IMG/VR virus record: IMGVR_UViG_2671180674_000006
Span: 1 to 4,282 of that record
Strand: one strand, 5' to 3'
DNA: 4,282 nucleotides
DNA from: a virus
Lineage: Duplodnaviria; Heunggongvirae; Uroviricota; Caudoviricetes
Shown: piece after piece, positions 621 through 3,817 of the stretch
How positions within the stretch are numbered: position 1 is the stretch's first letter
Layout: each line of letters opens with the position of its first letter
Made by a program: the position numbers and the translations under genes
The notes under the pieces: model-generated
What the model saw: only the letters and a program-made list of their open reading frames with translations
Database searches by the model: none
What the model was told of the DNA's origin: nothing

Positions 621-631
621 CAGACATTACA

Positions 632-654
632 GCAGCCCTTCAGCGAGGGGCTGC
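632..654. other. GC-rich hairpin 12 nt after the stop of the 321-620 ORF
   Basis: GCAGCCC (632-638) pairs with GGGCTGC (648-654) around a 9-nt loop. On the + strand it is followed by an A-rich run, not a U-run, so it is not a canonical intrinsic terminator for the upstream gene. Confidence 0.3.
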
Positions 655-662
655 GATAATGT

Positions 663-705
663 GAGAAATAAAAAACCGGTCACAGGGAACAGCTACACAG
701 AACCG
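663..705 (-). terminator. Possible minus-strand terminator-like element (copy A of a duplicated motif)
   Basis: AAATAAAAAACCGG at 666-679; read on the minus strand this is a short CCGG-containing stem followed by TTTTTTATTT. The stem is weak with a large loop. Confidence 0.2.
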
Positions 706-796
706 GCCGGCGAAGACCGCCAATACCACCCATGCATTGATGCAACATACTAATGACAATAGCTGCTCTTGATGTAAATGCAATGTTATGTATCGA

Positions 797-841
797 CGAA
801 AATAAAAAACCGGCAGGGGAAATCCATTGAAGATTTGCCGG
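797..841 (-). terminator. Possible minus-strand terminator-like element (copy B of a duplicated motif)
   Basis: AAATAAAAAACCGG at 800-813. CCGGC (810-814) pairs with GCCGG (837-841) and AAATC (820-824) with GATTT (832-836); on the minus strand the stem is followed directly by TTTTTTATTTT. Imperfect stem, so low confidence. Confidence 0.3.
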
Positions 842-985
842 TGGCAAAAGATGGCCATGCTTTCAACTTTAGTCGCAGGGTTACGGAGTGCAACTACGAA
901 TGCTGCCGGTATATGGCTGAATGGCGTTTCAATGATGTACGTCATCTTATCTGTAAATGTTAATGATAAATGCTCTCATTTGCGC

Positions 986-998
986 GGGTCCTTTCCGG
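986..998 (+). promoter_or_regulatory. cosQ-like / terminase large-subunit-side cos flank
   Basis: GGGTCCTTTCCGG matches, as I recall it, the segment of the lambda right end (…ACGGGTCCTTTCCGGTGATCCGACAGGTTACG) that precedes cosN and contains cosQ. It sits about 14-27 bp upstream of the proposed cosN core. Confidence 0.5.
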
Positions 999-1004
999 AA
1001 TCTG

Positions 1005-1034
1005 AAACACCGGGGGTCGTAGGACGCGCAAAAA
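1005..1034 (+). other. cosN region (terminase nicking site, cohesive-end core); exact nick positions not determinable from sequence
   Basis: The core GGGGGTCGTAGGA (1012-1024) is flanked by conserved lambda-like sequence: GGGTCCTTTCCGG upstream and CGCG…CGCTATTTACGAAAATTTTCAGG (1025-1059) downstream, which closely matches the lambda left-end CGCGGGTTTTCGCTATTTATGAAAATTTTCCGG. The core itself differs from lambda GGGCGGCGACCT and has partial dyad symmetry (GTCGTAGGAC). Confidence 0.55.
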
Positions 1035-1058
1035 CGCGCTATTTACGAAAATTTTCAG

Positions 1059-1078
1059 GGAACCATGTCCGGTTTCAC
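1059..1078 (-). repeat. cosB R-site candidate (R3-like), inverted orientation
   Basis: + strand GGAACCATGTCCGGTTTCAC; its reverse complement GTGAAACCGGACATGGTTCC carries the AACCGGACATG core shared with the two downstream copies. Confidence 0.55.
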
Positions 1079-1084
1079 TACTGG

Positions 1085-1118
1085 TTAACTATATGAAAAA
1101 TATAAAAACAAGCTTTTT
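1085..1118. promoter_or_regulatory. A-tract bend / IHF-like site between R-site candidates (I1-equivalent)
   Basis: Phased A5 (1096-1100), A5 (1104-1108) and T5 (1114-1118) tracts spaced 8-10 bp, positioned between the first and second R-site candidates as the IHF site I1 is in lambda cosB. Only a partial match to the IHF consensus WATCAANNNNTTR. Confidence 0.3.
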
Positions 1119-1206: not shown

Positions 1207-1716
1207 GTGGCTACGCAGACTGAAGTTGCCAGGCATTTGAGTCTGACCGATCGCCAGCTTCGCAGATTGCAGAAATTGCCGGGTGCCCCGGTCTCGAATA
1301 AACGGGGGCATCATGACTTGGATGCCTGGCGTGATTTTTACATATCGTATCTGAGGAGAAGTAAAAATGATGTGTCTGATGGTGATAGCGAAGAAGACTA
1401 TGAAGAAAAATTACTTATCGCCAGATGGAAATTGACTGAAGAACAGGCAATAGCACAGCAATTAAAAAATCAGGTAACTGAAGGCAGACTTATTGATTCA
1501 GGGTTCTGCGTTTTCGCCCTCAGCAAACTGGCGATGGCATTGTCCAGTACGCTTGATTCCATTCCTTTATCCATGCAGCGACAGTTCCCGGATTTAACCC
1601 CGCGTCATATTGATTATCTGAAAACCCTTATCGCAAAGGGAGCGAATCAGTGTGCGCGGGCAGGGGATAAATTGCCGGAGTTACTCGATGAATATATCCG
1701 AACAACAGTTGAATAA
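1207..1716 (+). CDS. nu1: Terminase small subunit (lambda Nu1-like), GTG start
   Basis: GTG start at 1207 preceded by GAGGTGAG (1198-1205), stop TAA 1714-1716. The C-terminal half (…GFCVFALSKLAMALSSTLDSIPLSMQRQFPDLTPRHIDYLK…LPELLDEYI…) matches my recollection of lambda Nu1 (…AFCTFVLSRIAGEIASILDGLPLSVQRRFPELENRHVDFLK…IPGLLSEYIEQSG); the N-terminal third is divergent. Lies immediately downstream of cos and overlaps the start of the large subunit, as in lambda. Confidence 0.85.
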   Translation: MATQTEVARHLSLTDRQLRRLQKLPGAPVSNKRGHHDLDAWRDFYISYLRRSKNDVSDGDSEEDYEEKLLIARWKLTEEQAIAQQLKNQVTEGRLIDSGFCVFALSKLAMALSSTLDSIPLSMQRQFPDLTPRHIDYLKTLIAKGANQCARAGDKLPELLDEYIRTTVE

Positions 1717-3604
1717 TATGATGATCGCCGTCACAACCGCATTACAGCCACTAATAAGGGCATTGCCGGTCACGCCGGTTGAATGGGCTGATCAAAATTA
1801 TTATCTGCCTAAAGAATCGTCATACGGTGAAGGAGAGTGGAAAACCCTGCCGTTTCAGGTCGCCATTATGAACAGCATGGGGCACGACAGGATCCGCACT
1901 GTTAATCTGATTAAATCGGCGCGTGTGGGTTACACCAAAATGCTGCTGGGCGTGGTCGGGTATTTTATTGAGCATAAATCCCGTAACAGCCTGCTCTTCC
2001 AGCCGACAGATTCCGCAGCTGAAGATTTTATGAAAGCGCATGTGGAAGCAACGCTCCGGGATGTCCCCAGCCTTAAAGCGTTATCGCCATGGCTGGGCAG
2101 AAAACATCGGGACAACACACTCACCCTGAAGCGTTTTTCCTCCGGCGTGGGGTTCTGGTGCCTGGGGGGGGCCGCTGCTAAAAACTACCGTGAAAAATCT
2201 GTGGATGTGGTCTGCTATGACGAACTCTCCTCGTTTGAACCGGATGTGGAAAAAGAAGGCTCGCCGACGCTGCTTGGCGATAAACGTATCGAAGGCTCGG
2301 TATGGCCTAAATCCATACGCGGCTCAACGCCAAAAATTAAAGGCTCCTGCCAGATTGAGAAAGCGGCGAATGAATCTGCGCATTTCATGCGGTTTTATGT
2401 CCCTTGCCCTCATTGCGGGGAGGCCCAGTATCTGAAGTTTGGCGATGATGCGACGCCGTTTGGCCTGAAATGGGAGAAGGGTAAACCCGAAACGGTGTAT
2501 TACCTGTGTGAACATAATGGCTGTGTGATCCGCCAGTCGGAACTTGACCAGACCGACGGATGCTGGATTTGTGACAATACCGGGATGTGGACGCGTGACG
2601 GCCTGACATTTTACAGTGCCGGTGATGAGGAAATCCCGCCACCGCGCTCAATTTCGTACCACATCTGGACGGCATACAGCCCGTTCACCACCTGGGTACA
2701 GATTGTTTATGACTGGCTCGATGCACTGAAGGATCCGAATGGCGTCAAGACGTTCATTAACACCACGCTCGGGGAGCCCTATGAAGAGGCCGTGGCAGAA
2801 AAACTGAGCTTTGAGTTGTTGCTGGAAAAAGTCTGCCACTATGGCGCGCAGGTTCCCCTGCGGGTGGTTTACCTGACCGCAGGGATAGACTCCCAGAAAG
2901 ATCGCTATGAAATTTATGTTTGGGGCTGGGCTCCCGGCGAAGAAGCCTTTCTGATTGACAAGCAAATTATCATGGGGCGACCGGAGGACGAGGACACCCT
3001 TAAACGTGTTGATGCGGTGATCCGGAAAAAATACCGCCATGCTGACGGTACTGAAATTTCCATTTCCCGCGTCTGCTGGGATACCGGTGGTATCGACCAG
3101 GACATTGTGTATCAACGTTCCAGGAAACACGGCACTTTTTTTGTGCTTCCCATAAAAGGGGCATCGGTGTATGGCAAGCCGGTGATCACCATGCCCAAAA
3201 AGCGCAACCAGCGTGGTGTGTTTTTGTGTGAGGTGGGCTCCGATACCGTCAAGGAAATGCTGTACGCCCGTTTTGCCCTGCCGGTGGTTTCTGCCAGTGA
3301 AGCAGCCCCGTATATCTTCCGTTTTCCGGATAACCCGGACATTTTTTCGGAAGAAGAGGCGCGTCAAATCGTAGCGGAAGAACTGGTGGAAAAGGTGGTT
3401 AACGGCAGGGTGAAACTGCTGTGGGATAAAAAAGGGCGACGCAACGAAGCCCTCGACTGCCTGGTATATGCTTATGCCGCCCTGCGCGTTTCGGTACAGC
3501 GGTGGCAACTGGACCTTGAAGCGCTGGCGAGGGCACGAAGAGATGAGCAGGATGAGGATGATATGAGCATGGAAGAGATCGCGGCTGCACTGAGTGGAGG
3601 ATAA
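1688..3604 (+). CDS. A: Terminase large subunit (lambda gpA-like), ATPase/endonuclease
   Basis: Start chosen at ATG 1688 (MNISEQQL…, GGAG at 1677-1680) rather than the listed GTG 1652, because lambda gpA begins MNIS…. Long collinear similarity to lambda gpA as I recall it: VEWAD-NYYLPKES, KSARVGY-KMLLGV, FWCLGG-AAKNYREKSVDV, GSPT-LGDKRIEGSVWPKSIRGSTPK, HFMRF-V-CPHCGE-QYLKFGD, IWTAYSPFTTWVQIV, YLTAGIDSQ-DRYE--VWGW-PGEE, IPIKGASVYGKPV, WDKKGRRNEALDC. Stop TAA 3602-3604. Confidence 0.95.
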   Translation: MNISEQQLNNMMIAVTTALQPLIRALPVTPVEWADQNYYLPKESSYGEGEWKTLPFQVAIMNSMGHDRIRTVNLIKSARVGYTKMLLGVVGYFIEHKSRNSLLFQPTDSAAEDFMKAHVEATLRDVPSLKALSPWLGRKHRDNTLTLKRFSSGVGFWCLGGAAAKNYREKSVDVVCYDELSSFEPDVEKEGSPTLLGDKRIEGSVWPKSIRGSTPKIKGSCQIEKAANESAHFMRFYVPCPHCGEAQYLKFGDDATPFGLKWEKGKPETVYYLCEHNGCVIRQSELDQTDGCWICDNTGMWTRDGLTFYSAGDEEIPPPRSISYHIWTAYSPFTTWVQIVYDWLDALKDPNGVKTFINTTLGEPYEEAVAEKLSFELLLEKVCHYGAQVPLRVVYLTAGIDSQKDRYEIYVWGWAPGEEAFLIDKQIIMGRPEDEDTLKRVDAVIRKKYRHADGTEISISRVCWDTGGIDQDIVYQRSRKHGTFFVLPIKGASVYGKPVITMPKKRNQRGVFLCEVGSDTVKEMLYARFALPVVSASEAAPYIFRFPDNPDIFSEEEARQIVAEELVEKVVNGRVKLLWDKKGRRNEALDCLVYAYAALRVSVQRWQLDLEALARARRDEQDEDDMSMEEIAAALSGG

Positions 3605-3607
3605 AGG

Positions 3608-3817
3608 ATGGTTTATACGCATGAAATGCTTTGCGAGGCGCGTCGGGCATTACATGAACTGATGATCGGGCGTGCTGTGGTTTCTGTCGGCAGGAACGGA
3701 CGGCAGGTTCAGTATTCGCGTGCGACGATTGGTGAACTGCGGCAATACATTGAAGAGCTGGAGAGTGCGCTGGGCGTGTCCGGACGGCGTCGCGGTCCGG
3801 TGGGAGTGAGACTGTGA
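3608..3817 (+). CDS. W: Head-tail joining / head completion protein (lambda gpW-like)
   Basis: ATG 3608 with GGAGG at 3595-3599, 3 nt after the large-subunit stop; stop TGA 3815-3817. The 69-aa product MVYTHEMLCEARRALHELMIGRAVVSVGRNGRQVQYSRATIGELRQYIEELESALGVSGRRRGPVGVRL resembles lambda gpW as I recall it (…[27 protein letters not shown]…YIAELE…RRRGPAGFYV) and is in the expected position. Confidence 0.9.
   Translation: MVYTHEMLCEARRALHELMIGRAVVSVGRNGRQVQYSRATIGELRQYIEELESALGVSGRRRGPVGVRL

Follow-up and report, generated by a model that had tools for sequence, protein, structure and literature searches.

A probable leftward terminator and a candidate small-RNA gene in an exchangeable spacer before cos of a lambdoid phage

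The DNA analysed here (the window, 4,282 nucleotides in full) spans the right end of a lambda-like (lambdoid) phage genome, including its packaging region. Its order is a late gene of unknown function, a spacer, cosQ/cosN/cosB, Nu1, A, W, and the portal gene. The late gene is a plus-strand ORF at 321-620, assigned by a PHROG match to the phage family phrog_1935 (function unknown); Nu1 occupies 1207-1716, the gene for the large terminase gpA 1691-3604, and that for gpW 3608-3817. The motif GGGTCCT at 986-992 (plus strand), which we take to be the cosQ of Wieczorek and Feiss (2001), is the right limit of the spacer and lies outside the cassette considered below. It aligns with lambda-type cos in two related loci (L002 and L004), and alignment with loci carrying lambda-type cos places cosN at about 1013-1026. 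Three copies of AACCGGACATG, at 1064-1075 (inverted), 1122-1132, and 1152-1162, lie between cosN and the Nu1 start; presumably, these are the cosB sites bound by the terminase small subunit in this phage type. Because positions 621-985 fall between the final late-region gene and cosQ, they constitute the last ~365 bp of the packaged genome.

This spacer is non-coding, as the first-pass annotation had supposed: it contains neither family matches, nor codon periodicity, nor RefSeq genes. Three ORFs, 778-963 (plus), 640-945 (minus), and 851-1096 (plus), were considered as genes and rejected. None has a Pfam or PHROG family match; codon periodicity is absent (variable alignment columns in 866-960 divide 20/17/17 by phase); and relatives carry frame-breaking indels. 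A 2-nt indel is present near 864 in related sequences. In E. coli STEC005, 401651, SE11, and H10407, the corresponding ~580 bp carry no RefSeq gene. In phage phiSTEC1575-Stx2k, three small "hypothetical protein" calls span the equivalent spacer (L002 1541-1978, genes 55-57); these probably are spurious, since the coding signal is missing. Nor does the interval resemble a protein-coding, bor-like moron, having no conserved ORF, codon-phase pattern, or family match. The message for annotation is that 621-985 should carry no protein-coding genes.

Hairpin 1 (624-662), a palindrome with arms at 624-641 and 645-662, directly follows the stop codon of ORF 321-620 and forms the left edge of a variable slot. 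It folds at -24.8 kcal/mol (z -6.4); across relatives, 90% of cells are paired and four pairs show compensatory changes, a score that none of 500 shuffles reaches. PhiP27, Fels-1, and an Actinobacillus phage have this hairpin but lack the remainder of the spacer. Loci vary in the genes upstream, and similarity to the window starts at 624-662 whichever gene precedes; by this comparison, hairpin 1 is the left breakpoint of mosaic exchange. Folding of the whole 365-nt spacer gives z scores of -2.35 (minus strand) and -0.67 (plus strand), but a structured RNA covering the entire interval was rejected, the signal being accounted for by two hairpins: hairpin 1 and T2, described below.

Loci with other slot contents resemble the window again only from about 957-974. 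In one close relative (L012), window positions 663-973 are replaced by a gene for a 274-aa secreted protein with its own terminator, which looks like a typical lysogenic-conversion cassette; the gene is on the plus strand at 1833-2657, and the protein has a signal-peptide-like N-terminus. Lambda carries at this position a leftward 64-aa DUF3950 ORF (orf-64), so leftward units beside cos have a precedent. This ORF (lambda 48109-48303, minus strand; L232 2210-2404) matches DUF3950 at E 2e-20, lies ~200 bp from cosQ, and is without annotation in the RefSeq lambda record used. In other lambdoid prophages the slot holds, just left of cosQ, a conserved, non-coding-looking, GC-rich element of ~190 bp (L071 2520-2730; also L016, L044, L046, L047, and L233-L237), in some prophages to the right of a T2-type hairpin. 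Rfam does not match it, and neither strand gives a fold signal. Given such varied occupants, the 621-985 interval is one of several exchangeable cassettes; it would be a non-coding cassette in a variable lambdoid slot that extends from the end of the lysis region to cosQ. Homology with the lambda right end or orf-64 was sought and rejected, since the 14-mer at cosQ, CGGGTCCTTTCCGG, is the sole sequence that the window shares with the lambda right end. About 30 bp left of cosQ, lambda-type genomes (L013, L023, and L232, for example) contain the almost perfect palindrome TGATAAT(N)ATTATCA, which could be a protein-binding site; the window keeps part of it at 959-975 (TGTTAATGATAAATGCT).

Within the cassette, the 14-mer AAATAAAAAACCGG is present exactly twice, at 666-679 and 800-813, as first described. 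It is absent elsewhere in the window even when two mismatches are allowed; 0.04 matches are expected by chance, and none of 200 shuffles reaches two. The spacer recurs at 85-96% identity in ~247 E. coli chromosomes and in many IMG/VR prophage contigs, and its carriers divide into two alleles, long and short. The short allele consists of hairpin 624-662, GAG, a single 14-mer, and the T2 stem (in L011, for example, 679 is joined straight to 801). The long allele, that of the window, contains an additional unit of ~134 bp (680-813, or equivalently 666-799) with the 14-mer at either end; depending on the locus, the unit is 134, 131, or 126 bp long. The 14-mer thus is the junction of an allelic insertion or deletion difference. 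An IMG/VR sample of 128 loci includes 84 long and 44 short alleles. Among 5,426 complete E. coli genomes, 243 (about 4-5%, including ETEC H10407 and E24377A) carry the T2 side, and 126 carry the insert. In H10407 the module is at about 1,307,767-1,307,927 of NC_017633.1, in E24377A at about 1,282,888-1,283,049 of NC_009801.1, and in SE11 at about 2,146,302-2,146,701 of NC_011415.1. The ~134-bp segment occurs in one to three copies per E. coli genome, within this module wherever its context was inspected. A transposable element, or transposon-like insertion with a 14-bp target duplication, was rejected, given that the ends of 680-799 are not inverted repeats and that scattered copies are absent. 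No promoter that is conserved or near consensus was found inside 680-799.

The first-pass annotation had noted that the AACCGG core of the 14-mer recurs in the cosB repeats. A meaningful tie is not supported: the identical module also precedes lambda-type cos regions in which AACCGGACATG is absent. Read off the sequence, copy 1 matches the Nu1 R site at nine of 12 bases and copy 2 at seven, and a relationship between the 14-mer and the R site is rejected, as the module also occurs with other types of cosB.

What the 14-mer does represent is the 3' half-stem plus U-tract of the minus-strand T2 terminator. T2 (800-842, minus strand), which includes copy 2 of the 14-mer, is a predicted Rho-independent terminator with its hairpin at 809-842 and its U-tract at 809-800. 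The basal stem is G+C-rich and comprises seven base pairs (ACCGGCA 809-815 with TGCCGGT 836-842), followed by an upper stem of five. A bulge of 5 nt interrupts the stem, which explains why a simple consensus scan missed T2. The minus strand folds at -13.5 kcal/mol (z -2.9, equalled by two of 200 shuffles) and the plus strand more weakly (z -1.5). Directly after the stem on the minus strand comes UUUUUUAUUU, beginning at the final stem base. For copy 2, the proposal that the motif is half a terminator stem with its T-tract thereby is borne out.

Conservation points the same way. Among loci fetched with the anchor 920-938, which does not include T2, per-site diversity is 0.018 in T2 (800-842; seven of 43 sites variable), 0.090 in 843-917, and 0.168 in 937-985. 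T2 thus is about fivefold less variable than adjacent DNA. Most of the variation that does occur falls in the loop, at a single A-tract position, or in A-to-G substitutions by which minus-strand pairing is preserved as G.U. Compensatory double changes are absent from the T2 stem among the family sequences, so the stem is supported by conservation rather than by covariation. T2 probably is a functional leftward terminator. The octamer GCCGGTGG at 837-844, within T2, matches Chi at seven of eight positions, in what would be the active orientation; it was rejected as a Chi site, the window holding nine sites with one mismatch (4.2 expected). There is no exact Chi in the window.

Copy 1 (666-679), which reads CCGGUUUUUUAUUU on the minus strand, is the tail of a degenerate unit, T1 (666-729, minus strand). 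Its stem, CCGGT...ACCGG, has five to six base pairs around a loop of ~20 nt (z -0.5, equalled by 62 of 200 shuffles), and in the commonest related haplotype it is broken by a change of ACCGG to AGCGG. A stable, conserved stem before the U-tract is lacking over 666-710 (minus strand). The window had been read as containing two terminators; copy 2 stands and copy 1 falls. Since the stem of copy 1 is weak, and is disrupted in that haplotype, there is one convincing terminator-like structure. Copy 1 lacks the conservation of copy 2: its stem is poorly conserved, and the insert is present in about half of the carriers.

T1 is a marginal relative of the T2 unit. It keeps UGGC..UCUU..CCGG plus the tail; read off the sequence, it has no -10-like hexamer at the corresponding place and no promoter-like hexamers. 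In a covariance model of the T2 family, T2 scores 92.8 bits, compared with 13.2 bits (E about 0.03) for 666-729 (minus strand), and a profile made without the 14-mer finds no match at T1. An alignment anchored on the two 14-mers and extended 46 nt beyond each is weakly suggestive (nine of 500 shuffles are as good). Tandem duplication of the 134-bp unit was rejected, local alignment of 680-799 with 814-985 not being significant (31 of 300 shuffles). With alignments this weak and so marginal a covariance score, T1 qualifies at most as a decayed relation of T2. It is most plausibly a second copy that has decayed, or otherwise no more than a back-up terminator.

A relaxed pattern search found four more T2 types, designated a-d, beside W. 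Types a-c begin at the Rz stop codon, and type d follows hairpin 1. The family alignment comprises 38 distinct minus-strand sequences; on that strand, all types have the basal stem ACCGGC/GCCGGU and all retain the U-tract, of five to six U. The sequence that would form the 5' leader also is partly shared. In the window this predicted leader (843-860, minus strand) reads about GCAUGGCCAUCUUUUGCC and has a U-rich tract immediately ahead of the terminator stem-loop; the motif UGGC...CUUU.GCC is kept across types W and a-d, and other leader positions vary.

Farther upstream, each type has on the minus strand a TTGnnn hexamer, an unconserved spacer of 16-17 nt, and TAnnnT at a fixed distance from the hairpin, with the exception of one abundant type in which TAGCAT stands in the -35 place. 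In the window, these elements make up a candidate σ70-type promoter (866-893, minus strand): TTGCAC at 893-888, a 16-nt spacer, and TAAAGT at 871-866, ~23 nt upstream of the T2 hairpin (21-25 nt across the family types). The -35-like hexamers of the family are TTGCAC, TTGCAT, TTGTAT, TTGTGT, or TAGCAT; the -10-like hexamers are TAAAGT, TAAGGT, TAGGTT, TAAATT, or TAAGCT. Matches to the promoter consensus number only six to seven of 12 positions (seven for the hexamers in the window). A standard promoter scan called none on either strand of 1-1300, and 843-1000 contains no other minus-strand promoter that is conserved or near consensus. Pairwise identity among the five types is 70% and 73% in the hexamers vs 36% in the spacer, whose length is constant. 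This pattern fits that expected of a σ70 promoter driving an RNA of ~58 nt, although some common hexamer positions could be inherited rather than selected, the family members being related by descent.

Together, these features suggest a model for the locus. The weak σ70-type promoter (-35 at 893-888, -10 at 871-866) would fire leftward, against the late operon, and yield a predicted RNA of ~58 nt running from about 860 to about 800. Its start, near 858-860, is placed from the position of the -10 hexamer alone; with an end at 800-806, the RNA would be 57-60 nt long. A single-stranded, partly variable, U-rich leader of ~15-20 nt would precede the T2 terminator. This layout would be that of an Hfq-type small RNA, which might act in trans on host or phage mRNAs. 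Action in cis on the late transcript also would be possible, because the RNA would be perfectly complementary to that transcript just upstream of cos and Nu1. T1, closed by the 14-mer at 666-679 and confined to the allele that is ~134 bp longer, would be a second, degenerate copy of the unit. Among the options offered by the first-pass annotation, a short RNA that runs leftward from a start within about 850-1000 agrees best with the comparative data, and the promoter-like sequence at 893-866 would supply its start. We give close to even weight to the proposal that compact promoter, short RNA, and T2 terminator constitute a self-contained small-RNA gene. More tentatively, T2 and its relatives may constitute an undescribed family of ~58-nt prophage small RNAs at lambdoid right ends, directed against the late operon and in some cases accompanied by a tandem copy in decay; its members could be Hfq-dependent regulators of host genes in lysogens, or could act as cis-antisense RNAs that restrain leaky late transcription from entering the terminase genes just across cos.

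The main rival to a small-RNA gene is a stand-alone insulating terminator: T2 would be a working leftward terminator with no dedicated product, keeping out of the lysis genes any antisense transcription that begins in the cassette or cos-proximal DNA to its right, and the promoter-like hexamers would be incidental. Cos itself, which the repeats once were thought perhaps to insulate, is on the wrong side. For leftward transcription T2 lies downstream of cos and therefore could shield lysis-side genes only. The constant place of T2, next to Rz or hairpin 1 at the left end of the slot regardless of the contents to its right, agrees with such a task; so do the weak promoter match, the leftward units among other slot occupants (lambda orf-64, for example), and T1, which could be a back-up terminator in the long allele. 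However, a bare terminator needs neither the leader motif nor two hexamers at fixed spacing, and both are kept while the 16-17 nt between the hexamers vary. Moreover, the W-type cassette has no recognisable leftward gene to the right of T2 that would need termination. An insulator of this kind appears unlikely, if a serious contender.

Another alternative assigns the action of the T2 hairpin to the plus strand or to the DNA itself. In the Q-antiterminated late mRNA, it could be a stem-loop for stabilisation or processing that lies between lysis and head genes; as DNA, it could be a packaging-related, protein-binding palindrome near cosQ (ACCGGCA...TGCCGGT with an A-tract). T2 does lie inside the late transcript, types a-c starting at the Rz stop codon, and the neighbouring hairpin 1 is equally symmetrical, with neither strand assignable as the functional one. 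At three pairs of the T2 stem, one-sided changes from A-U to G.U pair on the minus strand only, being A.C mismatches on the plus strand; at one position, in two sequences, the change runs the opposite way (U-A to C.A on the minus strand) and is tolerated in the plus-strand reading only. The plus strand folds less well (z -1.5 vs -2.9) and has no U-tract after the stem. The conserved run there is an A-tract before the stem, whose sole known role is as the U-tract of the minus-strand terminator. A packaging function is disfavoured because the module is joined to many cosN/cosB types and relatives lie at very different distances from cosQ (~145 bp vs >300 bp). Action on the plus strand or as DNA accordingly appears improbable.

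Equally improbable is an origin of the spacer as neutral debris, in which a bor-like leftward gene was deleted, its terminator and a few neighbouring bases hitch-hike with cos, and the 14-mer repeats are microhomology from illegitimate recombination. In favour of it, the slot is a hot spot of cassette exchange, T1 looks decayed, and a single unit bounded by the repeats separates the two alleles, a difference that recombination or slippage at direct repeats would produce. Against it, T2 shows about fivefold lower variability than the flanking DNA and persists with the same flanking motifs in diverged lineages, the ~150 bp from T2 to ~956 are the same in all W-type carriers retrieved (119 sequences; 82 in another set) with no gene between T2 and cosQ, and apart from the cosQ 14-mer nothing resembles the lambda right end. 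The lost bor-like unit that had been suggested for the window is not supported, given the same constancy of the T2-to-~956 stretch and the low variability of T2. Part of that stretch, the cassette remainder at 894-956, is non-coding and moderately conserved.

If the short leftward RNA of the small-RNA model exists, then the interval between Rz and cos is a second conserved regulatory-RNA site in lambdoid prophages, the known one being downstream of PR'. It also would provide a simple case of small-RNA cassettes that move as units of ~100 bp and then decay, as the long and short alleles and the degenerate T1 illustrate. If the RNA does not exist, then what remains is a mosaic spacer with an orphan terminator of an ordinary kind.

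T2 resembles intrinsic terminators in its 7-bp, G+C-rich basal stem with the U-tract directly after it, its stable fold, and its strong conservation. Unlike the standard examples it has a 5-nt bulge in the stem, and termination is predicted from sequence. The leftward orientation between Rz and cos, against the late operon, is shared with bor and with lambda orf-64 (DUF3950); those units encode proteins, whereas the window cassette has no coding signal. OOP, the paQ transcript, and P22 sar are short leftward RNAs fully complementary to a rightward phage message, as the predicted RNA would be. Their effects are known, and the regions that they overlap are coding or regulatory; the predicted RNA would instead be complementary to late-transcript sequence that is not translated.

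The Pas small-RNA genes of EPEC prophages (PasA-D) are situated near Q, holin, or structural operons, a prophage locus different from this one. This comparison is of location and phage records rather than of sequence: the phages reported to carry Pas genes (NC_011356, NC_049945, and NC_049952) are absent from the eight phage records that match 621-1000. Two contigs that carry T2-type hairpins have strong Rfam matches elsewhere to isrC and STnc100 (L243 9443-9565; L233 8888-9077), so those prophages hold several small-RNA genes. For the spacer and for the relatives of T2, Rfam searches returned nothing beyond a chance match to an archaeal snoRNA (E 3.5), and the spacer sequence was not found in the literature searched.

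The closest parallel is with the anti-sRNAs of EHEC prophages: AgvB/EcOnc01, AsxR/EcOnc02, and EcOnc03 (Tree et al. 2014, PMC4104026; Rfam RF02702, RF02703). These RNAs are 51-60 nt long, are convergent with the late operon at sites of cassette insertion, and consist of a conserved 3' part of ~42 nt and a variable 5' part of 14-18 nt (PMC4104026). RF02702 and RF02703 have no match in the window at E up to 1, in 600-1000 at E up to 10, or in the relatives L238, L243, L277, and L233. The sites also differ: the EHEC genes are downstream of PR', and the T2 unit is between Rz or hairpin 1 and cos. In other respects, the layout is alike. Both belong to lambdoid prophages, occupy a cassette-tolerant site, and are convergent with a Q-antiterminated late operon (PMC4104026); the sizes are similar (~58 nt predicted here vs 51-60 nt); both exist as related, non-identical copies; and in the family alignment of the T2 unit, as in the EHEC RNAs, a conserved 3' terminator part is joined to a short, variable 5' part.
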